A DNA stretch of 64,000 nucleotides, from contig OY821641.1 in assembly GCA_963555995.3 (NCBI GenBank), positions 1,792,001-1,856,000 of the forward strand, written 5' to 3'. Numbering within the stretch: the first letter of the stretch is position 1; every line of letters starts with the position of its first letter. This DNA is from Vicinamibacteria bacterium (GTDB lineage Bacteria > Acidobacteriota > Vicinamibacteria > Marinacidobacterales > Marinacidobacteraceae). Positions 22,645 to 37,690 of this stretch are shown here, piece by piece. The position numbers and the translations under genes are program-made. The notes beneath the pieces are model-generated. The model ran no database searches, was not told the origin of the DNA, and worked only from the letters and a program-made list of their open reading frames with translations.

Positions 22645-25566
22645 TCAGCGACCGTCGGCCAGCGCCGCGATCACCGCGTCGTGGAACGCCGGACGGAGCC
22701 GGAAGATCCCGTCGTTCTCGCGCGTCGGATAGACGCGGTTGGTGAGCAGCACGGCGAAGAGCTCGCGTTCCGGATCCACCCAGATCGAGGTGCCGGTGAA
22801 CCCGGTGTGCCCGAAGGACGAGGCGGAGAAGTGATCGCCCGCCGACGAGGGGCCGCCGGACGACGTCCGGGACGGGGTGTCCCAGCCGAGCGCCCGGCTG
22901 CTGTCCGGCGCGAGCCCCGCGCGCCGCGTGAACCGGGCGATGGTGCCCGCGCGGAGCAGGCGCTCGCCCTTCATCGTCCCCCCGTTCAGCAGCATCTGCA
23001 GGAAGACGCCGAGATCGCCGGTGGTGCTGAAGAGCCCCGCGTGCGCCGCCACCTCCCCCAGGACCACGGTGTTCTCGTCGTGCACCTGTCCCCGCACCAC
23101 CCGGCCGCGCCACGGGTTGTCCTCGGTCGGCGCGATGCGGTCCAGCCATTCCGGCGGCGGGCGGTAGCGGGTCGTCGTCATGCCCAGCGGTTCGAACAGC
23201 CGCTCCCGGACCAGCACGTCCAGCGGCTTCCCGGAGACCCGCTCGATGATCTCCCCGAGCAGCAGGATGCCGTTGTCCGAATACACGGTGTCGGTCCGTG
23301 GTTCGTAGTCGGACGTCGCGCCCATGATCCGGTCGAAGACCAGCCGTCGCGCCTCGGCGAGCGGGAGGCCGCGCGCTTCGGGGTCGAACTCCAGGTAGAA
23401 CTGGATCCAGGCCGGAAGCCCCGAGCAGTGGGCGAGCAGGTCGGTGACGGTGACGCCGGCCCTCCGGAGGCGCTCCTCCTCCGAAGGCGCCTGGTCGAGG
23501 AACTCCGGGAGGTAGGCGCTCACCGGCAGCGAGATGTCGAGGGCGTCCTCCTCCACCAGCATCATCACCAGGGTGGTGGTGCCGACGACCTTGGTCAGCG
23601 AAGCGAGGTCGTAGATCGTCTCGGGCGTCACCGCGGGCGCGTCCTCGTCGTAGGTCAGGCGGCCGAAGCCCTCCTGCAGCACGACGCCGCCCCGGCGCAC
23701 CACCAGCGCGCTGGCGCCCGGCGTCACTCCCTCGGCGATGGCGCGCTCGATGACCGCGCGGATGTTCTGGATGCCCTGCGGGCTCATGCCTGCCTCCCCC
23801 GGTTCCACCGGGCGGAGCCGCTGCCGCTCCGCTTCCTTCCTGATGCCCGCGCCGGCCGCCGCTTCCTCCAGCGGAATCGGCAGCGCCCCGTCCACCGCGG
23901 CCTCGCCGAAGAGCGCCGCCGCGGCCGCCTCCTGGTTCTCCCGCGCGCCGTCCCAGGCGAGCAGGATCGCCGCCTCGGGCGGCGCGTTCCGGACGCCGTG
24001 CGGGTTGCCGAAAGAAACCACCGCCAGCTTCTCCGCGAAGGGCGTCACCGCGCGCAGCAGTTCCTCGGGCATTTCGAGTCCGTTCTTCCGGAAATCGGCG
24101 ATCACTACCACGTCCGCCCGATCGGCGTCGCGCGCGAACCGCGCGACCGGCAGGGCGCCGTGGCGCGTCGCCGCGATCCTGGACCGCAGCGCGCCCCGCC
24201 GGCGGAGCGCTCCCCGGAAGAAGCGGCGGTCCGGCTCGTAGGGACCTTCCTGATGGACCTCCACCAGGAGGAGGCCCGGGGTCCGGTCGGACGGTCCCGA
24301 CCGCTTCCCGGTGATGCGCGTGGACCAGGGAAGGAGGCCCTCCGGATCGCGCACGAGCGTCAACCCGCGGGCGAAGAGCGACCCGGCCCACGCGCGGGCG
24401 GCCGGATCGCCGAACGCCTCCTCCAGCCGCTCCGGCGGCCGGCGGTCCCCGAAGAGACCGAGCCGGGCCTTCGCGGCGAGCACCCGGAGGACCGCGTCGT
24501 CGAGCCGCGCCTCGTCGAGCCGGCCCGCGCGCACCGCCCGCACGAGCGCCGCGTGCGCCACCACGGGGTCGCGGGGCACCAGGATCACGTCCACCCCGGC
24601 CCCGAGCGCGAGCGCCGCCACCTCACCGTCGAAGCGCCCGGCGCGCGCGCCCTCCATCTCCAGGGCGTCGCTCACCACCAGTCCGGCGAACCCCATCTCC
24701 GACCGGAGCACCCCGCCGAGGATCTCCGGCGAAAGCACCGCGGGCCGGTCGTCCCGGCCGTCGAGCGCCGGCACCGCGAGGTGGCCGGGCATGACCGCGG
24801 AAACCTCCGCCTCCACCGCCGCCCGGAAGGGAGCGAGGTCCACGGCGTCGAGGTGCTCCCGGTCCGCGGGCACGAGCGCGAGTCCGTGGTGGGAGTCCGT
24901 GCCGGTCCCGCCGTGCCCCGGAAAGTGCTTCGCCGTGGCGAGCGCCCCGCCCGCTTCGACGCCGCGCAGGAACGCGACCCCGAGCTCCGCGACGAGACCG
25001 GGATCGGCGCCGAAGGAGCGCGTCCCGATCACCGCGCTCGAGGCGCTCCGGAGGACATCCAGCACCGGGGCCAGCACCAGGTGGACCCCCACCGCCCGCG
25101 CCTCCCGCGCCACGATGCGGCCCTGGCGCTCCAGCGCGGCGGGGTCGGGGGCCGCGCCCGACTGCATCGCCGGCGGGAAGCGCACCCCGCCGGCGGTCCG
25201 CATCGGCGTCCCCCACTCGTAGTCGGCGGCCACCAGCACGGGGACCGGAGCCGCGCTCTGGAGCGCCGACGTCATGCGCCGCGTCCCGTCGGGCGTCCCG
25301 GCGAAGACGACCACCCCGCCGAGCCGGCCCGCCTCCGCCATCGCCAGCAGCTCCCGGCGCTCGGGATCCGCCGCATTCCGGAAGTCGGCAGGCGCCCGCG
25401 GCATCAGCACCTGGCCCACCTTCTCTTCGAGACTCAGGCCCCGGAGCACCCGCCGCGCCGTCTCGGCAGGTTCTTCCGCGCCCGCCGCCGCCACGCTTCC
25501 GAGCACGAGCCAGCTCGCCAGCGCCCGGCGGCGGGCGCTCCGCCGCGCCGTCGCCACCCCTCTCAC
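22645..25566 (-). CDS. GH3 beta-N-acetylglucosaminidase fused to a beta-lactamase-like serine hydrolase (NagZ-AmiE-like)
   Basis: LSLEEKVGQ, KHFPGHG, DSH, VSDALEM; then LASLTK (SxxK), YSD, GLFST, FGHTGFTGT. Confidence 0.88.
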   Translation of the reverse strand: MRGVATARRSARRRALASWLVLGSVAAAGAEEPAETARRVLRGLSLEEKVGQVLMPRAPADFRNAADPERRELLAMAEAGRLGGVVVFAGTPDGTRRMTSALQSAAPVPVLVAADYEWGTPMRTAGGVRFPPAMQSGAAPDPAALERQGRIVAREARAVGVHLVLAPVLDVLRSASSAVIGTRSFGADPGLVAELGVAFLRGVEAGGALATAKHFPGHGGTGTDSHHGLALVPADREHLDAVDLAPFRAAVEAEVSAVMPGHLAVPALDGRDDRPAVLSPEILGGVLRSEMGFAGLVVSDALEMEGARAGRFDGEVAALALGAGVDVILVPRDPVVAHAALVRAVRAGRLDEARLDDAVLRVLAAKARLGLFGDRRPPERLEEAFGDPAARAWAGSLFARGLTLVRDPEGLLPWSTRITGKRSGPSDRTPGLLLVEVHQEGPYEPDRRFFRGALRRRGALRSRIAATRHGALPVARFARDADRADVVVIADFRKNGLEMPEELLRAVTPFAEKLAVVSFGNPHGVRNAPPEAAILLAWDGARENQEAAAAALFGEAAVDGALPIPLEEAAAGAGIRKEAERQRLRPVEPGEAGMSPQGIQNIRAVIERAIAEGVTPGASALVVRRGGVVLQEGFGRLTYDEDAPAVTPETIYDLASLTKVVGTTTLVMMLVEEDALDISLPVSAYLPEFLDQAPSEEERLRRAGVTVTDLLAHCSGLPAWIQFYLEFDPEARGLPLAEARRLVFDRIMGATSDYEPRTDTVYSDNGILLLGEIIERVSGKPLDVLVRERLFEPLGMTTTRYRPPPEWLDRIAPTEDNPWRGRVVRGQVHDENTVVLGEVAAHAGLFSTTGDLGVFLQMLLNGGTMKGERLLRAGTIARFTRRAGLAPDSSRALGWDTPSRTSSGGPSSAGDHFSASSFGHTGFTGTSIWVDPERELFAVLLTNRVYPTRENDGIFRLRPAFHDAVIAALADGR

Positions 25567-26861
25567 GGCTTGCGGAGCAGCACGACGCGGTTGGTGTTCG
25601 TGCCGCGCGTGCGGTTGTCCACCCCCCAGCAGTGCGCGGTCTTGGTGAACCGCTGGTCGTTCACCAGCACCAGCAGCGGTTCGAGCCCCGCTTCCCGCGC
25701 CGCCGGAACCACCAGCGTCTCCAGCAGCAGCCGCCCACCCCGCACCTCGCCCACCTCGAACGCGACGAACCCCGACGGGACGAGGATGCGGCCGAGTTCC
25801 CGGAAGACCCGGGTCATGGCGGCCTGCCAGTCCGGCGCGCGCTTCCAGTGCCACAGCGCCACCTTAGCCGCATCCACCCCGTTGAACCAGCAGCGCAGCC
25901 AGTTGTCGGCGCGGTAGTCCACCACGTCGAGGAACGGCGGCGAGGTCACCACCAGCCGGACGCTCGCGTCCGCGAGCCGCGGCGTCCGGTCGGCGGAGGC
26001 GGTCAGCAGCACGGGATCGGCCTCCGCCAGGCGGCGCGCGTCCTCCGGGCCGAACCGGGCGAGCAGCGAGCGGGACTTCCGCAGGATCAGCGCCTTCACG
26101 TCCCGCTCGGGGGGCGTCTGGTTCCGTCGCTCGTTGATCCGCACCTGCGACCGGACCGACGCCGCCTGGTTGGGAGGCAGCGTGTACACCGAGAAGAACC
26201 CCGGCGAGTGCCCGGTGAGCCGGTTGGTCGCCACCATCCCGATCCAGCGGTCCACCCGGTCCGCCGTCCCCCGGGCGGCCCGGTCGAGGAGTTCCCGGCG
26301 GAGGTTCACGACGCGACGGAGGGTGGCCGGGTGGTAGAAGGCGAGCAGGTCGCCGGGGGTCTCGCACGGCCGTTCGAGGTCCAGCGAATCCAGCCGCCCG
26401 GCGACCGCGGCGAGGTCCGGCGGGTCGAAGCGCGGCCCGAGGAGCGTGGCGCTCAGCGGGTTCAGGTCCGAGCCGGCGGCGCGGCGGCCGCGCAGCGCGG
26501 CTTCGAGCGGCGTCGTGCCCCGGCCCATGAACGGGTCGTACACCCGGTCCCCCGGCCGCGTCAGCCGCTCGATGAAGAACCGGGGAAGCTGCGGCTTGAA
26601 GCAGGCGCGGTAGGAGATCTCGTGGAGCGAGTGCGCGGCCCGCTGCTTCGCCGTCCAGAACTCGTTCACAAACACCGGAAGGGAGGTCGCCGGGTCGGGG
26701 AACGGAACGATCCGCGTCCGCTTTCCGAACCGGTCGAACGCCTCCAGCTCCGCCCCGAACGCCGCCACCGAAAGCGGCCCGGCGGCCTCCGGCGCCGGGA
26801 CGAGCCGTCCCGAGGCCGCGGGCGGGAGTTCGGAACGGGCCGTCTCTACCGTTTGCGCCAA
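25563..26861 (-). CDS. Orphan DNA methyltransferase (likely N4-cytosine)
   Basis: YRACFKPQLP, YDPFMGRGTT (motif I), VTSPPF (motif IV). Confidence 0.85.
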   Translation of the reverse strand: MAQTVETARSELPPAASGRLVPAPEAAGPLSVAAFGAELEAFDRFGKRTRIVPFPDPATSLPVFVNEFWTAKQRAAHSLHEISYRACFKPQLPRFFIERLTRPGDRVYDPFMGRGTTPLEAALRGRRAAGSDLNPLSATLLGPRFDPPDLAAVAGRLDSLDLERPCETPGDLLAFYHPATLRRVVNLRRELLDRAARGTADRVDRWIGMVATNRLTGHSPGFFSVYTLPPNQAASVRSQVRINERRNQTPPERDVKALILRKSRSLLARFGPEDARRLAEADPVLLTASADRTPRLADASVRLVVTSPPFLDVVDYRADNWLRCWFNGVDAAKVALWHWKRAPDWQAAMTRVFRELGRILVPSGFVAFEVGEVRGGRLLLETLVVPAAREAGLEPLLVLVNDQRFTKTAHCWGVDNRTRGTNTNRVVLLRKP

Positions 26862-26972
26862 GTCCAGAGTCCGACGCGGACGCCGCGCCCGCCGGACCGC
26901 GATGCTACCAACCCGAACGTCGCGCCCGACCGGGGCGCCGGCCCCCGCCCGGCGTGGGACGACGCGGCCGAT

Positions 26973-27248
26973 TCAGGGATCGCTTCCGGACGGTTCGGCC
27001 GGCGTCTCCTCGATCGGCAGCAGCCGGAGCACGCCCTCGATGCGGGAAACCCGCCGGTCCAGATCGTCGAGGCGCGTCTCGATGCGATCCATGCGCGCCT
27101 CGATGCGATCCATACGGGCGTTCAGCCGCTCCTCGAGCCGATCCAGGCGCGCGTTCAGGTGCGCGAAACCAAAACCGGCAATGCCCAGCATCAGGGCGGC
27201 CTGCGCCACCCCGAGCGAGACGAACGGAATCCACTCTTTCTTCTTCAC
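26973..27248 (-). CDS. Small TM-anchored coiled-coil protein
   Basis: GTG with GGAGG RBS; hydrophobic segment then heptads ARLDRLE/ARMDRIE/ARMDRIE ending SRIEG. Confidence 0.7.
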   Translation of the reverse strand: MKKKEWIPFVSLGVAQAALMLGIAGFGFAHLNARLDRLEERLNARMDRIEARMDRIETRLDDLDRRVSRIEGVLRLLPIEETPAEPSGSDP

Positions 27249-27438
27249 GTTCCCTCCGGGCGTCTCCCGCCCATCGGACCCGTCCGGTCTATCGGAGAAC
27301 GTACCGGCGGGGCTCGTCGAACAATCGGGATTCAAGGTCTCCCGCTGGGAACGGCCCACGCGGCGCACGGCTCACTGCCTCCAACGCAGAGCCTAGCAGC
27401 CTCAACGTAACGTCAACCTGCGCAAATGACGGAACGGC

Positions 27439-27463
27439 TTGGAACGCCGGTCTCCAGACCGGC
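27439..27463 (+). repeat. Single REP-like palindrome
   Basis: TTGGAACGCCGGTCTCCAGACCGGC. Confidence 0.65.
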
Positions 27464-27540
27464 ACCGCGGCGCTCCGCGCCCGACGCAACCCCACCCGCA
27501 ACAAGGGAGTTCCCGCCCCGCCGAATAGACTCCGAGAGCC

Positions 27541-27702
27541 ATGAGCGGGACCCCCGAGATCTGGCTTGCCACCGTCTCCATCGTCGTTGCGATCGCGCTT
27601 TCGACCGCGTTCCTCCACCGGGAGTTTGCGTCCCTCCGCGAACGGCTGGCGAGGCTGGAGGGAGCCATCGAAGGCTTCTTCGCGGGGAAGGCGGCGCCGT
27701 AG
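27541..27702 (+). CDS. 53-aa TM/coiled-coil small protein (absent from the ORF track)
   Basis: MSGTPEIWLATVSIVVAIALSTAFLHREFASLRERLARLEGAIEGFFAGKAAP*; TAGACT just upstream. Confidence 0.65.
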   Translation: MSGTPEIWLATVSIVVAIALSTAFLHREFASLRERLARLEGAIEGFFAGKAAP

Positions 27703-27724
27703 TCCCACCGCGCCGGGTGCGCCC

Positions 27725-28627
27725 GTGAGCACGGATCGCGAAATGCCGAGCCGGTCCAAGGGCGGCCTTCCGCCCACACAGCGGCCCGACGACCCGCCCG
27801 GGATGGCGGCCATCCGGCGCTTCTTCGGGCACCCGGTCTTCCAGGGGATCTGGGCGTGGCTGCGCGCGATCGGACGCGGCATCCGGGCCGTGTGGAAGTG
27901 GCTCGACCGGAACGCCGGCCCCATCGCGCGCGGCATCGAGAAGGCGGGTGACGTGGCCGCCCGCGCGTCGCGGGCCACGGTGCACGTCGGGCAGGCGGCG
28001 GTGGAGATCGGGGGGAAGGTCAACGATTGGGGCCGGCAGCGCGGCGCCGCCGGGGGTGCGAAGCTGCGGCGGGCCGGCGCGCGGATACGCGACTTCGGCC
28101 GCCACGCCGCCCGGATCGGACAACGGGCCGAAGACACCGCCGAGACCGTGGAGGACCTGGGCGGGGAGCTCGCCGGGCTCACCGAGGGAGACGGCGGCGC
28201 GAAGCCCGCCGCGACGGCGACTCCGCTCCCCTCGCCGCGACCCGCACCCTCCGCCACCTCCCGCGTGCGGCCCCCGGAGCCTCCGGCGCCCAGCCCCGCG
28301 CCCCCGCCTGCCGCCCCGGCGGAACCGCCCCCGGACACGGCAGCGCCGCAACCGGGTGAAGCCGACGGAGCACTCCCCGAAGCGTTCCACGAGCGCATCC
28401 GCGCTCTCGGCAAGCGCCGCCGATCCAAGCCGCTCCGGCAACTCATCGCGGACATCTGCGCGTTTCGGAAATGGACCACCGTGGGCGAACTCGCGGGATG
28501 GCTCGGGATGGACGCCAGCAACCTCCAGAAGCGCCATCTCCGGCCGTTGTTGAAGGCGGGCCGGCTGCGGCTTCGTCATCCCGATAACCCACGCCATCCA
28601 GAGCAGGCGTACCGGACCGTCGCCTGA
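27725..28627 (+). CDS. Hypothetical protein with C-terminal winged-helix domain (Fic-C-like)
   Basis: Amphipathic N-terminus, Pro-rich linker, TVGELAGWLGMDASNLQKRHLRPLLKAGRLRLRHPDNPRHPEQAY. Confidence 0.65.
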   Translation: MSTDREMPSRSKGGLPPTQRPDDPPGMAAIRRFFGHPVFQGIWAWLRAIGRGIRAVWKWLDRNAGPIARGIEKAGDVAARASRATVHVGQAAVEIGGKVNDWGRQRGAAGGAKLRRAGARIRDFGRHAARIGQRAEDTAETVEDLGGELAGLTEGDGGAKPAATATPLPSPRPAPSATSRVRPPEPPAPSPAPPPAAPAEPPPDTAAPQPGEADGALPEAFHERIRALGKRRRSKPLRQLIADICAFRKWTTVGELAGWLGMDASNLQKRHLRPLLKAGRLRLRHPDNPRHPEQAYRTVA

Positions 28628-28666
28628 TCCGGGGTTTCCGGCCGGGGTTGACGGCAACGCCGCGGG

Positions 28667-29026
28667 AGCAATGGTCAAACCCGCCGAGCAATGGTCAAAG
28701 CAATGGTCAATTCGCCGGGAGCAATGGTCAATTCGCCGAAACAGGCCGGAAAGCAATGGTCAAACCGCGAATTCGGGGGCTTTTCCGGGAATTCGGACGC
28801 TTCGGCGGTTCTCTGCCGGATTCGGTTCCTACCGGCTGGAACCGGCTGAATTCGGCTGGTATTCGGTAGTCCCGGTCCTTTCTAGCGGCGGATTCCGGTC
28901 CGGGGACCGGGTTCGCGGAACAGCAGGAATCGGCTCCGGCGAGCTCTGGTCAGATACCGGCTGACGCGCGGCAGCAATGGTCAAACCCGACGGAGCTCTG
29001 GTCAATGTGCGGCGAGCTCTGGTCAA
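28667..29026 (+). repeat. Direct-repeat array AGC(AA/TC)TGGTCAA in two clusters
   Basis: AGCAATGGTCAA at 28667, 28687, 28699, 28720, 28752 and 28973; AGCTCTGGTCA(A/G) at 28942, 28994 and 29015. Confidence 0.85.
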
Positions 29027-29080
29027 TTCACCGGAACGCAGCCCCACCGGTACGCCCACCGTCGTGATGGCGCCGCCGGC

Positions 29081-29323
29081 TTGGAGCGCCGGCTTCAGCC
29101 GGCACCGCGGGCCGCAGGTCCGCGGATGTCGTGTCGCTGTTTGCGGTGATGGGCCGGAAACCGCGCGCTGTCGCGCGGGGCAGCGTCGTGCAGTCCGCTG
29201 CGCTGCGCGCAGCGGGTGCCGGCTGAAGCCGGCGTTCCAAGCCGGTGCGCCATGCGGCTACTCAGCCATTTGCGGTTTCGCTGCGCTGCGCGCAGCGGTG
29301 CCGGTCTGAAGACCGGCGGTCCC
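29081..29323. repeat. REPIN plus third REP arm
   Basis: TTGGAGCGCCGGCTTCAGCCGGC at 29081; inverse 29218-29240; GCCGGTCTGAAGACCGGC at 29300. Confidence 0.8.
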
Positions 29324-29343
29324 GGGTACCCGAGTGACGGGAA

Positions 29344-32300
29344 ATGGCGTGGGGCGCTCGTATGATCCGGCGCTGCATGGGGAACTCGACCGCGCCGCCG
29401 TCCCGGAGCGTCCGCGTCCGTCGGTTCCGTGACTGGCGGGGGCTGCGCTCCCACCTCGCCGAGGAGGCGCGGCGGGACGCGGGGGGGCTGCTCCTGCTCA
29501 CCGCGACCGACGGCGCGCGCGCCGCGCTCGAGGACGCCGTCCGGCGGCGGCTGCTCGCGGGTCGCGGGGACGCGGCGCGGCTTCCGGCGGTGCGCACCCC
29601 GGCGCTCGCGGTGGCCGACCTCCTCCAGCGCAGCGACCCGCCGGGAACGCTCGCCACCCCGCTGGCGCGCTCGCTGATGATGGAGAACGCGCTGCTCGCG
29701 CACCAGCACGCGGACGGCGCGCCGCGGGGGAATCCGCTGCGGCTCGCCGGACCGCTGCTCGGGTTCCTCGACGAGCAGGCGCGCGACCGCAGGGTGGAAC
29801 CGGGCCGCCCGGCGTTCGGGGCGCTGCTCCGGCGCGCGGCGCGGACCTTCGGCGAACACCGGGAGGCGGACGCCGGCGCCGAACGCCTGTCCCGGCTCAC
29901 CGGCTGGCTGGAAGCGGTCCACGCGAGCTACCTCGAGCAGTTGCGGGCCTCCGGCGCGCTGGACCTCGACCGGGCGCGCCGCCGCCTCCTCGACGCGCCC
30001 CCGGAGTCGCCGTGGTCGGAGGTCCGGGCGGTCGGCGACCAGGCCACCGGGCTCGCCGACAACCACCTCTTCGGGAGCCTGCTCCCGGCCGGGCGGCTCC
30101 ACTTCCTCCTCCTCGAGGACGACCCGACCCCGGAGCTTCCCGACGGATGGACCGCCGCCGAGGAAACCGCCGCGCCGGCGGCGACAGCCGGGTCACCGAC
30201 GCTGTTCGTACCCGCCGCGCCCGAACCCGACGAGCCGTTCCTGTTCCGCCGCACCGACCGCGCCGGGGAAGCCCAGGCCGCGGTGGCGCTGCTGCGGCGC
30301 TACCACCAGCGGTCGGGGCTGGGCTTCGCCGGCTTCGACCGCTGCGCCGTCGCCGCCCGGAACCCGGCCGCCGTCGTGGAGGCGCTCGCCGCGCGCCTGA
30401 CCGAGGCGGGCGTCCCCTTCCAGACGCGGGTCCGCCCCTCGCTCGCCGAGGAGCCGTGGCCCGCCGGCCTCGACGACGCCCTCGCCTTCGCGGAGCGCCC
30501 CGGCCGCCTCTCGACCGGCATGGCGCTGCTGCGGAGCCCGTTCTTCCGGGACGACCGGCTCCCGCTGCCGCCGGGCCGGCTCGCGGACCTCGCGGAGTCC
30601 CGCCTCGCCGAGGCGGACATCCCGAACACCCACGACCCCGACGGCCTCGAAGCGCTGGCGGGAACGGTGCGGCGGCTCGCGGACGACCGCCTCGCCGAGG
30701 CCCGCCGGAAGGCGGCGGACGGCGCCGACGAGGGGGGCGCCCGCCGCGAGGAACGGGCGGGCCGGGAACTCGGGCTGGCGGCCGATGCGGTGGCGCGCTT
30801 CGCCGCCTACGCCCGCGCGCTCGCCCCGATCCGGGACGGCGCCACGCCTTTCCGGACCGCGGTGCGGGCGTTTGCCGCGTTCGTCACCGACCACTTCGCG
30901 GAGGCCCCGGACGACCGGGCGCTCGAAGCGCTCCGCCAGGCGGCGGACCCGGCGCTCCCGGACACCCCGGTCGGGGACCCGGCGCGCTTCCGCGACCGGG
31001 TCCGCCGACAGCTCCGCCGCCAGGAGGCGACCCGCTACCCGGGCCGCTCCGGGGTCCACCTCATCGCCGCCGAGGACGCCCCGTTCGGCGACTACGACTG
31101 CCTGCTGCTGCTCGGCGTCGGCGACGCCGACTGGCCCGGCCCCCGCCCCGGCAACATCTTCTTCCCGACCCGCGTCCTGGAACCCGCCACCCGGCGGCGC
31201 TTCGCGGACGCCCGCGGCCGCGAGGCGCGCCTCCTCGGTTCCTTCGCCGGACTGGCGGGCGAGGCGGCCGGATTCACCCGCGCCGAACTGGAGGACGGGT
31301 TCCCGGCGGGGGCGTCACCCCTCGCCTCCGTCCTCGGCTCGAAGCTGGAAACGGTCCCGGAACCGGTCCCGGTCGCGCTTGCGGAGGACTCCGCCGCCAG
31401 CGCGGCCGCCCCCCTGCCCGCGCGCCTCGCCCGCGCCGCGCCGGGCGCGGTGGATCTCGCGGCCCGCCCCCTGTCCCCGTCGGCGCTCGTCCTCTACGCC
31501 CGGAACCCCGCGCAGTACTTCCTCGAACGGGTGCTGCGCCTCCAGCGGGAAGAAGCGCTCACCGACACCGGGTCGCGGACCGCGCGCGGCAGCCGGCTGC
31601 ACCGGCTGATGGAGGAAGCGGTCCCGGCCTTCGCCCGCGAGCACGGCCCGCTCGCGGAAGACAACCTCGACGCCGCCCTCGCCTTCTTCCGCGACCGCTG
31701 GCGGACGCCCAACGACCCGGCGCTGACTCCGGAGGTGCGCGCGGCGGAGGAGCTCTGGCTCTTCGGCGGCGACTCGCATCCGGGGGCGCTCGAATGGTTC
31801 CTCCGCGAGGAAGCCAGCCGGGGTCCGAGCACCCCCATCCACCACGAGACGATGCTGGAGGGAACGGTGGAGCCCGCCAACGACCACCGGCCCCCGCTCC
31901 GCGTCCGGGGGTACGTGGACCGGGTGGACGAGGGGCCGGACGGCGGGCTCCGGGTCATGGAATACAAGTCGGGCTCCTCCGCCGGCCGCGACGAGGCCTT
32001 CCTGCAGGCCCGGCTCTACGCCCGCCTCGCCGGGGGCGGCGCGTCGGCGGAGATCGCCGTCCCCTTCTTCCGCGACCGGGTCTGGGGCGAACCCGACAAG
32101 CCGGACGAACTCGACGAGAAGATCCGCGAGGCGCGCGACGGGCTCGCCGACGGGGAGTTCCCGGTCCCCGAGAACGAGATCAAGTCCTTCGACTGGCCGC
32201 TCGCCATCCGCCCCGACCTCCCGGATGCCGCTCCGGCGCGCGCCCGTCCCGTCCCGGCGCCGCCGCCGGGGGCGCCGCCCCCCGCTCCCCCGGCGGCGAC

Positions 32301-34965
32301 CTTCCGCCCCGGCGACCACGACCAGCGGGTCGCCGCCGGCGACCCGAAGCGCCACGTGGTGCTGCGCGCCTCGGCGGGGACCGGAAAGACGACCGTGCTC
32401 ACCGAGCGCTACCGGAACCTGGTGCGCGCGGGCGTCCCGCCCCGGCACATCCTGGCGCTCACCTTCACCCGCAAGGCGGCGGCGGAGATGAAGGAACGCA
32501 TCGTGAAGCGGCTCGCGGGCGCAGACGTCGAGGGGAACCCGGACCTCGCCGAGGTCGGGGTCTCCACCCTCGACGCCTTCAACCTCGGCCTCATCCGGGA
32601 GTTCCCCCTCGACGCGGGCGTCGCGCCCGGGGTCGAGGTGCTCGACGAACGCGAGATGCCGGTGCTCCAGCAGGAGGCGGTCGAGCGGGTGCTGAGCGGC
32701 GCGACCGGTTTCGACCGCCGGACGCTGGCGGAGCTCCCGCTCCTCGGGCGGAGCCTCTCCCGGCTCGACGAGATCGCGAAGACCTTCCTCGACAACCGGC
32801 TGACCTGGCGCGACACCTTCGAGGAGGAGGCCGGACGGCGCGCCCGCCGGTCCAGCTCCGGGCAGCCGGTGCTGCGGGAGCGGTTCGGCCCGGTCGCGGA
32901 CGAGGTCGGCCGGTTCCTCGGCGGCTACGGCGGGCCGGTGCCGCTGCCCGTCCGGCTCGCGCTCCGGCTCGCGCCCCGCCCCCCGTCCGGGGACGCGCTC
33001 GACCGGGAGTTCCTGACCGGCTGGCTGCGGCCGGACCTCAAGACCGCCCCCCGGGGCGCCGCCGGCCTGGTGAAGCCGGTGGGCCCCGAGTACCAGCGCC
33101 TGAAGGCGGTGCTCCGGGATTTCAACCTCGACTGGCGGGACGCGCTGAACGAGCGCACCTTCGGCCCCGTCTGGGAACTGCTCCAGGCGGTCGAGTCGGA
33201 GTACGACGCCCTCAAGGAGGACCGGGGGGTGATGGACTTCGACGACCTGACGAGCCGCGCCACCCGGCTGCTGCGGAACACCGGCGAGTTCGCCGAGAGC
33301 CGTTTCCGGCTGGAGGCCCGCTACCACCACCTGCTGCTCGACGAGTTCCAGGACACCAGCGACCCGCAGTGGCGGCTGCTCCGCGCCATCGCCGAGCCGT
33401 GGACCCACGGCGAGGGCCTCGCGGCGGAGGAGGTCCGGAAGGTCACCAGGGGACGGCTGCGCGAACCCACCCTCTTCGTGGTCGGGGACCACAAGCAGTC
33501 CATCTACCGCTTCCGGAACGCCCGCGTGGAGATCCTCGGCGGCGCCGAGGCCTGGATCGGCAGGGCGTTCCGCACCCGGCCCCGGAACGTGCTGTCGTGG
33601 AACTTCCGCTCCCGCGCGCCGCTCCGGCGCTTCGTGAACGACGTGGCGGGCGCGGTCGCGGAGGCGGACGCGGCGACCGAAGGGGACTGGCGGTTCCGCT
33701 ACGACGGGGAAAACGACCGGTTCCCGGAGGAGCCCGGGCCGGAAGAGGACGCCCCCGGCGGGGAGGGCGCGGCGACCCCGAGCGCCCTCGCCGTATCGGT
33801 CGCGGAATACGACGAAGAGGCCGCGAAACACGACCGGGACGCACACCACAAGGAGGCCGCCCGACGGGTGGCGGCGCGCATCCAGGCGCTCGCCGACGGG
33901 GGCGTGCGGCTCGACGACATCGCGATCCTCGCGCGGGTGAGCACGCGGCTTTCCCTGTACCGCGAAGCGGTGGAGGGGCGCGGCCTGCCCACCTACCTCG
34001 TGCGGGGCGCCGGCTTCTTCGAGACCTCCGAGGTGCGCGACCTGACGGCGCTCGCCCGCTTCCTCGCCCGCCCCGCCTCGGACCTCCGGGCGGTGGAGCT
34101 GCTGCGGTCGCGGTTCTTCGCGGTCCCGGCGGCGGCGCTCGCCGCGCTCCGGGCGGCGGACCCGTCCGCCGACACGCCGTTCAGCGACCTCCTGCGGGGC
34201 GGCGGCGCGATCCCGGGCGACCTCCCGCCCCCGGACGCGGCGGCGCTCCGGGAGGCCGGGGAACGCGCGGCGGCGTGGATCGCCCTCTCCCGCCGCCTGC
34301 CCCCCTCGCTCGCGGTACGGCGGATCCTCGCGGACACCGGCTACCTGGCGCGGGCGCGCGCGGCGGATGGCGGCGGCTTCGCCGGCCGGCAGCAGGCGGC
34401 CAACGTGGAGCGGGCGCTCCAGCACGTGCAGCGGGTCGAGCGGAGCGGCTTCGCCACCTTCGCGGCGGTGGCGCGCCACCTCGAATCCGCCGCCGCGAAC
34501 GGCCACGACGCCACCCAGGCGCCGCTCCGCGCGGCGGGAGCGGTCCAGGTGCTGACCATCCACGCGGCCAAGGGGCTCGAGTACGAACAGGTCTTCCTCG
34601 TGGACCTGAACGCCCGGACCCGCGGCCCCGGGGGCGGCCTCCGGGTGCAGGAAGGCGACGACGGCCGCTGGAGCATCGCCCTGGTCGCGGAGTCGAGCGA
34701 CTGGGAGATCCGCGACGGGGGACGCAGCAGCGCGGAGGAGCGGCGCTGCCTCTACGTCGGCATGACCCGGGCGAAGCGCGGCCTCACGCTCTCGGGGACC
34801 ACGCGGTTCACCGCGAAGGGGGCGCCCGGGAAGGCCCAGGGGCTCGCCGGCTACCTCCCGCCCGACCTGTGGCTCGCCGCCGCGAGCACCGCCAGGGAGC
34901 CCCGTCCCGAGATCGCGTGGAAACGCCACCGGCTCGCGGTGCTGCCCCCGTCGGACTCCGGGTGA
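29344..34965 (+). CDS. Fused AddB-AddA (RecB-like) helicase-nuclease
   Basis: AddB-like N-half with nuclease motifs LSPSAL...RGSRLH...RGYVDRVD...EYKSG...QARLY; Pro-rich linker; UvrD motifs ASAGTGKT, LTFTRKAAAEM, LLDEFQDT, VGDHKQSIYRFR, NFRS, LTIHAAKGLE, LYVGMTRAK. Start may be 29362 or 29377. Confidence 0.88.
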   Translation: MAWGARMIRRCMGNSTAPPSRSVRVRRFRDWRGLRSHLAEEARRDAGGLLLLTATDGARAALEDAVRRRLLAGRGDAARLPAVRTPALAVADLLQRSDPPGTLATPLARSLMMENALLAHQHADGAPRGNPLRLAGPLLGFLDEQARDRRVEPGRPAFGALLRRAARTFGEHREADAGAERLSRLTGWLEAVHASYLEQLRASGALDLDRARRRLLDAPPESPWSEVRAVGDQATGLADNHLFGSLLPAGRLHFLLLEDDPTPELPDGWTAAEETAAPAATAGSPTLFVPAAPEPDEPFLFRRTDRAGEAQAAVALLRRYHQRSGLGFAGFDRCAVAARNPAAVVEALAARLTEAGVPFQTRVRPSLAEEPWPAGLDDALAFAERPGRLSTGMALLRSPFFRDDRLPLPPGRLADLAESRLAEADIPNTHDPDGLEALAGTVRRLADDRLAEARRKAADGADEGGARREERAGRELGLAADAVARFAAYARALAPIRDGATPFRTAVRAFAAFVTDHFAEAPDDRALEALRQAADPALPDTPVGDPARFRDRVRRQLRRQEATRYPGRSGVHLIAAEDAPFGDYDCLLLLGVGDADWPGPRPGNIFFPTRVLEPATRRRFADARGREARLLGSFAGLAGEAAGFTRAELEDGFPAGASPLASVLGSKLETVPEPVPVALAEDSAASAAAPLPARLARAAPGAVDLAARPLSPSALVLYARNPAQYFLERVLRLQREEALTDTGSRTARGSRLHRLMEEAVPAFAREHGPLAEDNLDAALAFFRDRWRTPNDPALTPEVRAAEELWLFGGDSHPGALEWFLREEASRGPSTPIHHETMLEGTVEPANDHRPPLRVRGYVDRVDEGPDGGLRVMEYKSGSSAGRDEAFLQARLYARLAGGGASAEIAVPFFRDRVWGEPDKPDELDEKIREARDGLADGEFPVPENEIKSFDWPLAIRPDLPDAAPARARPVPAPPPGAPPPAPPAATFRPGDHDQRVAAGDPKRHVVLRASAGTGKTTVLTERYRNLVRAGVPPRHILALTFTRKAAAEMKERIVKRLAGADVEGNPDLAEVGVSTLDAFNLGLIREFPLDAGVAPGVEVLDEREMPVLQQEAVERVLSGATGFDRRTLAELPLLGRSLSRLDEIAKTFLDNRLTWRDTFEEEAGRRARRSSSGQPVLRERFGPVADEVGRFLGGYGGPVPLPVRLALRLAPRPPSGDALDREFLTGWLRPDLKTAPRGAAGLVKPVGPEYQRLKAVLRDFNLDWRDALNERTFGPVWELLQAVESEYDALKEDRGVMDFDDLTSRATRLLRNTGEFAESRFRLEARYHHLLLDEFQDTSDPQWRLLRAIAEPWTHGEGLAAEEVRKVTRGRLREPTLFVVGDHKQSIYRFRNARVEILGGAEAWIGRAFRTRPRNVLSWNFRSRAPLRRFVNDVAGAVAEADAATEGDWRFRYDGENDRFPEEPGPEEDAPGGEGAATPSALAVSVAEYDEEAAKHDRDAHHKEAARRVAARIQALADGGVRLDDIAILARVSTRLSLYREAVEGRGLPTYLVRGAGFFETSEVRDLTALARFLARPASDLRAVELLRSRFFAVPAAALAALRAADPSADTPFSDLLRGGGAIPGDLPPPDAAALREAGERAAAWIALSRRLPPSLAVRRILADTGYLARARAADGGGFAGRQQAANVERALQHVQRVERSGFATFAAVARHLESAAANGHDATQAPLRAAGAVQVLTIHAAKGLEYEQVFLVDLNARTRGPGGGLRVQEGDDGRWSIALVAESSDWEIRDGGRSSAEERRCLYVGMTRAKRGLTLSGTTRFTAKGAPGKAQGLAGYLPPDLWLAAASTAREPRPEIAWKRHRLAVLPPSDSG

Positions 34966-35519
34966 GCGCCCGCCGCCTCCTCGCCACCCGGCGGCTCGCC
35001 CACCTCCTGCTCGAACGCGCGGCGCGGGGGAGGCCGGCGGACCGCCAGCCGGATCGGGAAACGGCGGCCCGGCTGCTGGACCCGCGCCTCGCGCCCGGCG
35101 CCGAAACCCGGCGGCGGGTAATCGCCGAGGCGCTCGCCCTCGCCCGCGCCGCCGCGGCCGCCCTCGGCGGCGACGAACGGCTGGCGGGCGAACTGCGCAC
35201 GAACCTGCGCATCGCGCTCCGGGACCGGGAGGGCAAGCCGTTTTCGGTGCTGGCGCCGAGCGTGGTGCGGCGCGCCGACGGGACCGCGGCGGTGCTCGTC
35301 ATGGTCCCGGACGGCGACCGGGGCGCGGAGGCGCGGGCGCGCCGCTACCGCTTCGCGGTGGGACGCCTCACGAAGCGCCGGGCGGACGCCTTCCTGGTCC
35401 ACCCGGACGGAACCGTCGGGGAAGCGCCCGTCAGTCGCAGCGGACCGCGCGGGGCGGCGTATCCAGACAGAGGATGTTCGCCGTCCGGCCGTCCGCGATC
35501 CGGGCGCAGGCCCCGGTGA
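34962..35519 (+). CDS. Degenerate RecB/AddA-type nuclease-like domain encoded as a separate ORF
   Basis: GTG overlaps the upstream TGA; RRLAHLLLE...VVRRADGTAAVLV...ARARRYRFAVGRL follows the GxxxH...D...DYK...QLxxY layout without the acidic/Lys residues. Confidence 0.55.
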   Translation: MSARRLLATRRLAHLLLERAARGRPADRQPDRETAARLLDPRLAPGAETRRRVIAEALALARAAAAALGGDERLAGELRTNLRIALRDREGKPFSVLAPSVVRRADGTAAVLVMVPDGDRGAEARARRYRFAVGRLTKRRADAFLVHPDGTVGEAPVSRSGPRGAAYPDRGCSPSGRPRSGRRPR

Positions 35520-35706
35520 TCGCGGCGCGGATCGCGTCGGCCTCGGTGGCGCCCTGGGCGGTCACGGTGGCCTCGCGGCCCGCCATCTCCATGGTGACTT
35601 CGCAACGCGCCTCTCCCATCGTCAGGGTGGAAACCACGAGGAAGACGACCAGCAGGGCGAAGAGCCCGAAGACGAGCCAGCCGATCCGGCGGATCCGGGG
35701 GTTCAT
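35431..35706 (-). CDS. Small membrane-anchored protein with four Cys
   Basis: MNPRIRRIGWLVFGLF... TM; CEV...GACA...C...VRCD; ATG overlaps the upstream stop. Confidence 0.7.
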   Translation of the reverse strand: MNPRIRRIGWLVFGLFALLVVFLVVSTLTMGEARCEVTMEMAGREATVTAQGATEADAIRAAITGACARIADGRTANILCLDTPPRAVRCD

Positions 35707-36701: not shown

Positions 36702-37277
36702 ATGAGCGTCCTGGAGATGACACCGGTAGCAACGTCCCTCCCGTCCGGACGATTCGTCCTGCGGATGCCTCCACCCCTGCACGAGTTGCTGCGTGGCGAA
36801 TCGAAGGCTGCCGGATTGTCGTTGAACGAGTACTGCGTCCGCCGGCTCACAACCGGCGGCTTGGTGGAAGAGGATGCCGTGACCCTCGTTTCGCGCTGCA
36901 CCTCGGTCCTGGGGGGCGGCTTCGCCGCCCTCCTCCTGCACGGATCCTGGGTGCGCGGCGACGCCTCGGCGGGCTCGGATGTGGACGCGCTGATCGTGGT
37001 GCGCCCCGAGGTCGCGCTCGACCGGTCGCTCTACCGGGAATGGGACGCGCAGCCCCTGCGCTGGCGTGGCCTGCCCGTGGATCCCCACTTCGTCCACCTG
37101 CCGGCCCCGGACACCTTCAGCGGGCTGTGGGCCGAGGTGGCGACCCACGGCCTGACCCTCTTCGATCGGGACGGGCAGCTTGGCTTGCACCTCGCGCGTG
37201 TCCGGAGCGCGATTGCCGACGGTCGGCTGCGGCGGCGTTTCGCCCACGGCCAGCCCTACTGGGCGGGGGCCGCGTAG
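36702..37277 (+). CDS. HicB-type RHH fused to a minimal nucleotidyltransferase (MNT)
   Basis: SGRFVLRMPPPLH...GLSLNEY; HGSWVRGDASAGSDVD (GSx10DxD). Confidence 0.8.
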   Translation: MSVLEMTPVATSLPSGRFVLRMPPPLHELLRGESKAAGLSLNEYCVRRLTTGGLVEEDAVTLVSRCTSVLGGGFAALLLHGSWVRGDASAGSDVDALIVVRPEVALDRSLYREWDAQPLRWRGLPVDPHFVHLPAPDTFSGLWAEVATHGLTLFDRDGQLGLHLARVRSAIADGRLRRRFAHGQPYWAGAA

Positions 37278-37690
37278 TGCGGAACCCGGCGCTCGCTGCG
37301 GACCACCTGCGCCGCGCGGAAGGCCGCCTCATCGCGATCCGTGCCCTCCATGAGGCCCAGCATTGGGCCGATGTCGTCCGGCAATCCCAGGAAGCCGTGG
37401 AACTCGCGCTCAAGGGACTCCTCCGCGCTTCCGGCGTGGACCCTCCCCGCATCCACGACGTCGCCGACGTTCTGGAAGCCGAACGGGACCGCCTGCCCGA
37501 ATCGCTGATGGAGGATCTCCCTCGCCTTGCGGCTGCCTCGCGCAGCCTGCGACGGGATCGGGAACTCGCTGTGTACGGCGCCGATGACCTGACGCCCTCG
37601 GTGTTCTATCGCCGCGAGGACGCCGACGAGGCCTGGAGTACCGCGCGTTTCGTCGTGGAACGCGTGCGTCCCCTCGTCCCCGGCGACTGA
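37277..37690 (+). CDS. HEPN domain protein
   Basis: QEAVELALKGLL, PPRIHDV, RELAVYG; GTG overlaps the MNT stop. Confidence 0.85.
   Translation: MRNPALAADHLRRAEGRLIAIRALHEAQHWADVVRQSQEAVELALKGLLRASGVDPPRIHDVADVLEAERDRLPESLMEDLPRLAAASRSLRRDRELAVYGADDLTPSVFYRREDADEAWSTARFVVERVRPLVPGD

Follow-up and report, generated by a model that had tools for sequence, protein, structure and literature searches.

AddAB of Bacillus subtilis (3U44, 3U4Q, 4CEH, 4CEI and 4CEJ) is built from four modules, an inactive helicase domain and a nuclease in AddB and an SF1A motor and a nuclease fold in AddA. As described in PMC3321194, the AddA motor tracks the 3' strand, the AddB nuclease cuts the 5' strand and the AddA nuclease cuts the 3' strand until Chi. 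Mycobacterial AdnAB (AdnB D1014A mutant; 6PPR, 6PPU and 7SJR) has a 3'-to-5' motor and a 5'-strand nuclease as well (PMC5314763), and in RecBCD the single active nuclease ends the motor subunit. Here, we describe a locus in a 64,000-nucleotide stretch (contig OY821641.1, positions 1,792,001 to 1,856,000; hereafter the window) of the genome of a Vicinamibacteria bacterium from the family Marinacidobacteraceae (3.8 Mb, 2 contigs). The four modules of B. subtilis AddAB are all present in the window. However, AddB and the AddA helicase are joined in one chain (the fusion) and the AddA nuclease fold forms another (the satellite), the Fe-S cysteines are missing, the AddA nuclease appears to be dead and the AddB part has no Walker A motif.

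The fusion gene (29344..34965, + strand) is one open frame of 1873 aa, of which the true start is possibly a later ATG (29362 or 29377). The third-position GC content is 0.86-1.0 across all 150-nt bins of the frame, including the junction. Pfam places PDDEXK_1 at aa 710-940, UvrD-helicase at aa 993-1398 and UvrD_C up to aa 1818. The first module is an AddB-type inactive helicase domain (29404..31443, + strand; aa 21-700), assigned by alignment and by a profile of the N-terminal 680-700 aa, for which B. subtilis AddB was the sole PDB match at E <0.3 (3u44_B, E=1e-6). No Walker A motif was found in the N-terminal alignment, the single one in the frame being at aa 1009, and the region equivalent to motif Ia varies in alignments inside the family. 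The AddB-type PD-(D/E)xK nuclease (31471..32220, + strand; aa 710-959; PF12705) is followed by a Pro/Ala-rich linker of 26 aa (32221..32298, + strand; aa 960-985), which is disordered in the AlphaFold2 model (per-residue confidence, pLDDT, <50 at aa 963-985) and resembles the low-complexity C-terminal tail of AddB in unfused relatives. The AddA-type SF1A helicase (32299..34962, + strand; aa 986-1873; Walker A at 32368, DEFQDT at 33340 and motif VI at 34753) contains all of motifs I, Ia, II, III, IV, IVa, V and VI, and has no C-terminal nuclease; 63 aa separate motif VI from the end of the frame.

The closest PDB sequence match of the fusion is B. subtilis AddA, and the four best Foldseek matches of the AlphaFold2 model (aa 701-1873; mean pLDDT 84, pTM 0.75) are all AddA chains (4cei_A, 4cej_A, 3u44_A and 4ceh_A). 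B. subtilis AddAB thus gives the best sequence or fold match for the N-terminal and helicase domains of the fusion as well as for the satellite; for the nuclease, the closest PDB sequence match is AdnA (E=1e-5). The scores of the fusion are under the NCBIfam cut-offs for AddA (239 vs 861 and 181 vs 708 bits). A sequence-only reading of this DNA had described an uninterrupted 1873-codon frame with an AddB-like region, a PD-(D/E)xK nuclease, a Pro/Ala linker without an in-frame ATG and a full UvrD motif set, and the present analysis bears out each of these observations. An internal restart yielding a separate AddA was rejected, as aa 950-1004 contain no in-frame ATG, GTG or TTG, and the GTG that comes first, at aa 1005, is four residues ahead of Walker A.

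The join is genuine by several lines of evidence. We searched 41 genomes of the order, namely 25 of the family (including the source genome) and 16 of the sister families f2 and f3. This type of locus is present in 41/41, and it is fused in 7 of the 25 family genomes (five of genus g1, including the source, and both of genus g6) and split in the other 18. A protein search gave 49 matches, among which both domains occur together in 19 clusters (17 with lengths of 1771-1879 aa, the other two partial). The genomes and clusters that share the join come from ENA, NCBI and Logan, and their linkers are divergent. The sequence-only reading had suggested following reads across the junction; no stop or frameshift was found there, and contigs of three of the four sequencing runs compared bridge it in frame, all three being from one study that is possibly the source of the assembly. 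That two genes were joined by an assembly or sequencing error is therefore almost certainly wrong, given the same in-frame join in six other genomes of two genera and in 19 protein clusters, the bridging contigs and the unbroken codon bias. Such errors do seem to occur in the protein collection, where two single-member fusions of this type (P0052 and P0053), in which the nuclease match ends early, are probably frameshift joins and call for caution in counts of architectures. An in-frame 6-nt insertion at 32168 relative to the window was seen in contigs of all four runs; it is a strain or assembly difference that leaves the frame unaffected.

In relatives with split genes, the end of addB encodes a low-complexity tail and addA begins within a few bases. 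In one genome outside the fused clade (G016; L027:3546-3554), addB and addA share a reading frame with a single TGA and one codon between them, a state that is one step from fusion. Most simply, then, the linker would be the old AddB tail read through. Motif II reads DEFHDT in 16/18 split alleles, and DEFQDT is kept in all 7 fused alleles, in genus g3 and in the sister families.

The nuclease of the fusion retains the catalytic set of AddB-type nucleases (H753, E835, D859, E873-x-K875 and Q888-x3-Y892), and the corresponding alignment columns (H, E, D, (E/D)-x-K and Q-x3-Y) are conserved in 25/25 family genomes. E873, the motif III acid, aligns with AdnA D934, which was mutated in 6ppj/6ppr to inactivate that nuclease. 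None of the four Fe-S ligand cysteines is present in any of the 25 genomes. In the window these positions are N721, I946, F949 and I955, and the four cysteines of the fusion (aa 11, 334, 586 and 1802) are all outside the nuclease domain. The sequence-only reading had pointed to YARNP (31495) and NEIKSFDWPLAIR (32173) in place of the cysteines, and rightly so: in an alignment with 15 AddB nucleases from the sister families, they fall in the Cys1 and Cys2-4 columns. At these 15 scorable loci Cys2-4 were found in 15/15 and Cys1 in 14/15, the exception being frameshifted (G025 was left out of the scoring as its contig lacks the gene), and CxxC..C is kept in 14/14 loci from other orders of the class and family f19. 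Across the family, the Cys1 position is N or S and the Cys3 position is F in 25/25; this Phe, invariant in the family, likely takes the space left by the cluster. The pLDDT of the modelled nuclease is about 90 for the most part and 66-74 where the staple segment was, and the identity of the domain to the other family members is 42-77 %. It is reported that many, not all, AddB proteins carry the cluster (PMC3321194 and PMC2887965), so an Fe-S-less AddB is in itself not new.

The second chain is encoded directly downstream. The sequence-only reading had stated that the frame lacks the nuclease with which AddA normally ends; this is correct for the fusion itself, but the next, overlapping frame, which encodes that fold without its catalytic residues, was overlooked. 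The satellite gene (34962..35519, + strand; 185 aa; conserved part about 34962-35417) is Arg-rich and begins with a GTG that overlaps the stop of the fusion (GTGA). A homologue lies 3' of addA in 24/25 family loci, and the contig of the remaining one (G021) ends there. The satellite had no Pfam, NCBIfam or PADLOC match, and its family consists of 62 clusters without a Pfam domain. Its AlphaFold2 model (pLDDT 94) matches AddA 1056-1230 best (Z 8.9, rmsd 3.6, 137-138 residues aligned), with the Cas4-like ACE1 and Dna2 tying within 1 Z, and hhalign aligned it with the intact AddA C-terminus of sister family f2 (E=6e-5, 139 columns). In the same hhalign register the catalytic E, D, D, K and Q are gone in 24/24 and the H is kept in 22. 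A scan of genome contigs with the single protein gave no matches, and its profile, run against 1.84 billion representatives, found 10 matches of 150-245 aa; up to E=0.001, none of its matches was a full-length AddA. The satellite is therefore connected to AddA by its position, its fold and the profile comparison.

The satellite is under purifying selection as judged from the sequences, with dN/dS of 0.13-0.25 among split alleles (6 pairs) and 0.39-0.53 among fused alleles (4 pairs) (0.06-0.18 for the flanking amidohydrolase, for comparison; all by a simple counting method on high-GC sequences). It is predicted to dock on the AddB N-terminal domain, where the modelled complex scored 0.78 and the best of 3 controls 0.00, a score that may reflect likeness to solved AddAB; the mark used is reached by 116/157 solved pairs and 2/215 mismatched pairs. 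The runs agree in at least 94 % of contacts with a partner pLDDT of at least 83, and the predicted interface on AddB is at about aa 63-108. Six of the 14 invariant satellite residues are among its 26 interface residues (of 152; p=0.016). The machine therefore probably consists of two chains, not one.

Both the loss of the Fe-S cysteines and the detachment of the nuclease are family-wide features, as far as sequences can tell, and they are common to all 25 and 24 scored genomes, fused or split, so the fusion did not cause them. Outside the family, the AddA nuclease is still attached but devoid of its catalytic residues in 7/8 genomes of family f3, is intact in the 5 genomes of family f2 where it is readable, and has its motif in 12/14 loci of this type in the class. 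One AddA of this type (L136, genome G189) ends 98 aa past motif VI without a nuclease motif, possibly an independent loss; the genome is RecJ-positive and a second AddAB was not found in it.

The window system is not the only AddAB of the cell, an initial candidate reading that was overturned by a canonical addB-addA operon in the same genome (C1:2157999-2164810) with four Fe-S cysteines and both nuclease motifs. Canonical AddB was found in 39/41 order genomes (29/29 of high quality), and the 21 canonical loci read in the family have the cysteines and the AddB motif in 21/21 and the AddA nuclease pattern in 18. Among 13 same-class genomes of other orders, 9 have the second system and 8 of these have both types. 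Five class or phylum genomes match the window type only, with no match to the second system for the query used, so the window type can be the only AddAB. The source genome also encodes RecA, RecO, RecR, RecQ and Ku, and RecF was not found in it. RecJ was found in 1/41 order genomes (a match under the cut-off, at a contig edge), in 121/161 genomes of the phylum sample and in 12/13 same-class genomes of other orders (a tally that includes the unpublished G063).

When the alleles were compared with the species, the cassette of addB, addA and satellite showed a history of its own. In quick IQ-TREE runs the fused alleles form one clade on both the AddA-helicase tree (38 rows) and the AddB tree (27 rows) with SH-aLRT 100, and a constraint holding genus g1 together is rejected on the allele trees (AU p=6e-41). 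The rpoB tree (24 rows, G016 being absent as it has no rpoB) requires 5 changes for the fused state and rejects a fused clade (AU p=8.6e-51), and the canonical AddA tree gives the same rejection (p=1.3e-28). Vertical inheritance of the fused allele is thereby rejected, and several independent fusions within the family are unneeded as the fused alleles form one clade. Fused and split alleles share one locus, with a GH3 gene on one side and an amidinotransferase-like gene and an amidohydrolase on the other. Against a split member of the same genus (G014), the flanking proteins are 78-90 % identical and the cassette 38-55 %; against a fused member of another genus (G024), the cassette is 56-69 % identical. 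Between G005 and G014 the nucleotide identity falls from 83-92 % to 54-72 % over the cassette and is 92 % just past the satellite. Because the fused clade conflicts with the species trees and identity drops sharply over the cassette at one locus, we conclude that fusion occurred a single time and that the fused allele then spread through exchange of the three-gene cassette in place, more than once. The direction was likely from a g6-like donor into g1, since the split alleles of g1 group with g5 and g7 as the species do.

We consider it probable that the window encodes a rearranged AddAB that unwinds a broken end and cuts the 5'-ended strand only, which would give RecA a Chi-independent 3' tail. 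By analogy with AddAB, the DNA end would be bound and the AddA motor, whose motifs are all in place, would track 3'-to-5'. The displaced 5' strand would thread the AddB nuclease and be cut there, the catalytic residues being present and the strand choice taken from B. subtilis. The 3' strand would pass the inactive AddB helicase domain and leave uncut past the satellite, which may act as a cap or single-strand guide on the AddB N-terminal domain, and RecOR, whose genes were found, may then load RecA. With the 3'-strand cutter dead, the 3' tail could start from the very end without Chi. Such a machine would work beside the canonical two-nuclease AddAB and may provide the 5'-to-3' resection that RecJ gives elsewhere, and the fusion would be a late step, a stop lost between coupled genes that probably changed the chemistry little. 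In Mycobacterium smegmatis, PMC5314763 reports recombination near wild type when the 3'-strand nuclease of AdnAB is killed and an about 5-fold loss when the 5'-strand one is, and describes no RecJ-like enzyme as known there either. The sequence-only reading had likewise proposed a re-wired end-resection machine with one active nuclease; the proposal fits the sequence evidence but was incomplete, as it did not include the second chain, the family-wide losses, the canonical AddAB or the recurrence of fusions. A more detailed version, in which a naturally evolved, Chi-free resectase of the 5' strand only takes the role of RecJ in an order without RecJ, the dead AddA nuclease has turned into a separate DNA-binding or RecA-handover subunit, a Phe-packed core stands in for the cluster and an advantage of the fused allele drives its repeated replacement of others in place across species, is put forward tentatively.

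Several results weigh against the proposal. The window type is class-wide and occurs in the 12/13 same-class genomes of other orders that have RecJ; family f2 is without RecJ and yet keeps the AddA nuclease motif in its 5 readable genomes. RecJ acts at gaps too, which are beyond the reach of an end-loading enzyme. The tie between the window AddAB and RecJ loss is therefore weak, and because RecJ-positive class members carry this type of AddAB, it is older than the RecJ loss and the idea that it arose to replace RecJ is ruled out. In addition, the dN/dS of the satellite is higher in fused than in split alleles, and AddB 189-383 is the whole span of the profile alignment to B. subtilis, whose Chi residues are not alignable. 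Finally, cluster loss in B. subtilis AddB is reported to abolish DNA-end binding and to unfold the nuclease (PMC3321194).

This last observation would also suit a pure helicase, in which the AddB nuclease is inactive without its cluster and ends are unwound for RecOR without any cutting. The reported destabilisation of B. subtilis AddB on cluster loss (PMC3321194) points that way, as does the finding that a doubly nuclease-dead AdnAB still drives recombination (PMC5314763). However, all seven catalytic-motif positions are kept in 25/25 genomes despite a domain identity of only 42-77 %, and the domain is folded confidently by AlphaFold2 without the cysteines, which makes the absence of cutting very improbable. 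It can also be argued that a redundant second copy is drifting, with Fe-S loss, nuclease decay and fusion tolerated as accidents because the canonical AddAB, with its four cysteines and nuclease motif at every locus read, does the repair. The decay of the attached AddA nuclease in family f3 and the small step needed for fusion (the loss of one stop, as G016 illustrates) would agree with drift. Nevertheless, the window type is in 41/41 order genomes with its catalytic residues all kept, the dN/dS of nuclease and helicase is 0.14-0.36, the rate equals that of canonical AddA in 6/9 same-allele pairs once the fused g1 set is left out, a satellite has been retained at 24/24 loci where the contig extends that far, and the type can be the sole AddAB of a genome. 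We find drift of the whole system quite unlikely; it may hold for the fusion step alone.

An enzyme of genetic conflict is unlikely too. Here the second AddAB would act on, or be targeted by, phage or foreign DNA, and divergent cassettes would be swapped between species to escape inhibitors. Such swapping agrees with a fused allele that is a single clade yet requires five changes on the rpoB tree, with sharp exchange edges at a single locus, and with some split alleles being more diverged than the species (G014-G009 65 % vs 81 % in canonical AddA). RecBCD-bound phage proteins (8b1t, 8b1r and 5mbv) are among the fold matches, and many members of the genus have an N6/N4 methylase and an MNT-HEPN pair beside the locus. 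On the other hand, the locus is stable with metabolic genes on its flanks across the family, dN/dS is <1 in 10/10 pairs, and loss of the 3'-strand nuclease should weaken DNA destruction. A known defence system was rejected as well, since PADLOC yields generic UvrD matches only and none for the satellite. The rearranged, 5'-strand-cutting AddAB thus remains our preferred reading.

Set beside the described systems, the locus has an AddA-type SF1A helicase with intact motifs and an AddB with an inactive helicase domain and a RecB-family nuclease that keeps its catalytic residues, and descent from an addB-addA operon is supported by same-order and same-class relatives with split addB-addA. It departs from AddAB in that it is not a two-gene heterodimer, would not have two active nucleases and has no four-cysteine Fe-S staple. 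We therefore regard the system as one that descends from AddAB and would work like post-Chi AddAB while lacking these three textbook features. AdnAB, by comparison, is encoded by two genes as a heterodimer, has two active nucleases and keeps Walker motifs in AdnA (PMC3321194), unlike the AddB-like part in the window; the one-nuclease state that was engineered in the AdnAB mutant would here be natural. Relative to RecBCD the arrangement appears reversed, the nuclease of the motor being dead and the one on the AddB/RecC side retaining its catalytic residues. No RecD was found among the neighbour genes, to which the search for it was confined.

Of the 27 proteins recovered by searching for longer forms, 17 belong to this family, 2 are the probable frameshift joins and 8 come from other lineages. 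The latter (P0054 from Myxococcales, P0056 from a cluster with a Planctomycetota member, P0055 and P0057-P0061) also have an AddB nuclease followed by a UvrD-type helicase. Unlike the window fusion, each of the 8 has retained a second nuclease motif at its C-terminus, and 6/8 keep CxxC..C. Fusion of AddB to AddA alone is thus a modest, recurrent event. What sets the window system apart is that it combines the absence of an Fe-S cluster, a catalytically dead, detached nuclease that has been retained and for which docking back is predicted, the coexistence with a canonical AddAB and the swapping of the cassette in place. Lactococcus RexB is a further example of an Fe-S-less AddB. Cromie's survey of AddAB shuffling may mention fusions or Fe-S-less AddB. 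In the titles and abstracts found for fused AddAB, Fe-S-less AddB/RexB, AddAB/AdnAB/RecJ and the lineage, there was no such architecture (Cromie 2009, Yeeles 2009 and Quiberoni 2001 were not covered). Eukaryotic Dna2 and the UvrD-Cas4-like fusions of the pfam12705 branch likewise combine a single SF1 helicase with a single RecB/Cas4-family nuclease in each chain; the UvrD-Cas4-like fusions are mostly beside restriction-modification genes (PMC5704561). However, the Dna2 nuclease has an Fe-S cluster whereas the window nuclease has no cysteines for one, and in UvrD-Cas4-like proteins the helicase comes first and an Fe-S nuclease second, whereas in the window the nuclease precedes the helicase and a 700-aa AddB inactive helicase domain stands in front.

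If the proposed mechanism is true, the locus encodes a natural one-chain 'post-Chi' AddAB with its motor on the 3' strand and a cutter on the 5' strand only. The canonical, the Fe-S-less with detached nuclease and the fused forms make up a graded natural series, in which end binding by an AddB nuclease without a cluster and a role of the AddA nuclease fold beyond cutting become testable. The satellite represents a previously unannotated family of 62 clusters, and a single-chain resectase making long 3' tails could serve as a reagent. Two AddAB-type machines coexist across a bacterial class; in a survey of complete genomes such systems are described as largely complementary, with only 16 genomes having both RecBCD and AddAB (PMC6452273).

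Around the cassette, a small conserved ORF of about 90 aa (35431-35706, - strand) with a hydrophobic N-terminal stretch, cysteines and no Pfam match overlaps with its 3' end the dispensable tail of the satellite. Further downstream, a HicB-like/nucleotidyltransferase gene and a HEPN gene (36702-37690, + strand) of the MNT-HEPN toxin-antitoxin type are patchy among relatives. Upstream of the cassette, an N6/N4 DNA methylase gene (25563-26861, - strand; PF01555) is present in genus g1 (77-83 % identity) and was not found there in the loci of other genera. About 2.5 kb (26800-29330) is unmatched in the loci of relatives. This segment contains an ORF with a weak Fic-like C-terminal match (27566-28627; E=4e-4, below the cut-off), palindromic elements of which the genome has 142 and 296 exact copies, and a 19-nt repeat with 8 copies in two clusters (28665-28768 and 28971-29031), the 12-nt core of which occurs 16 times in the genome.

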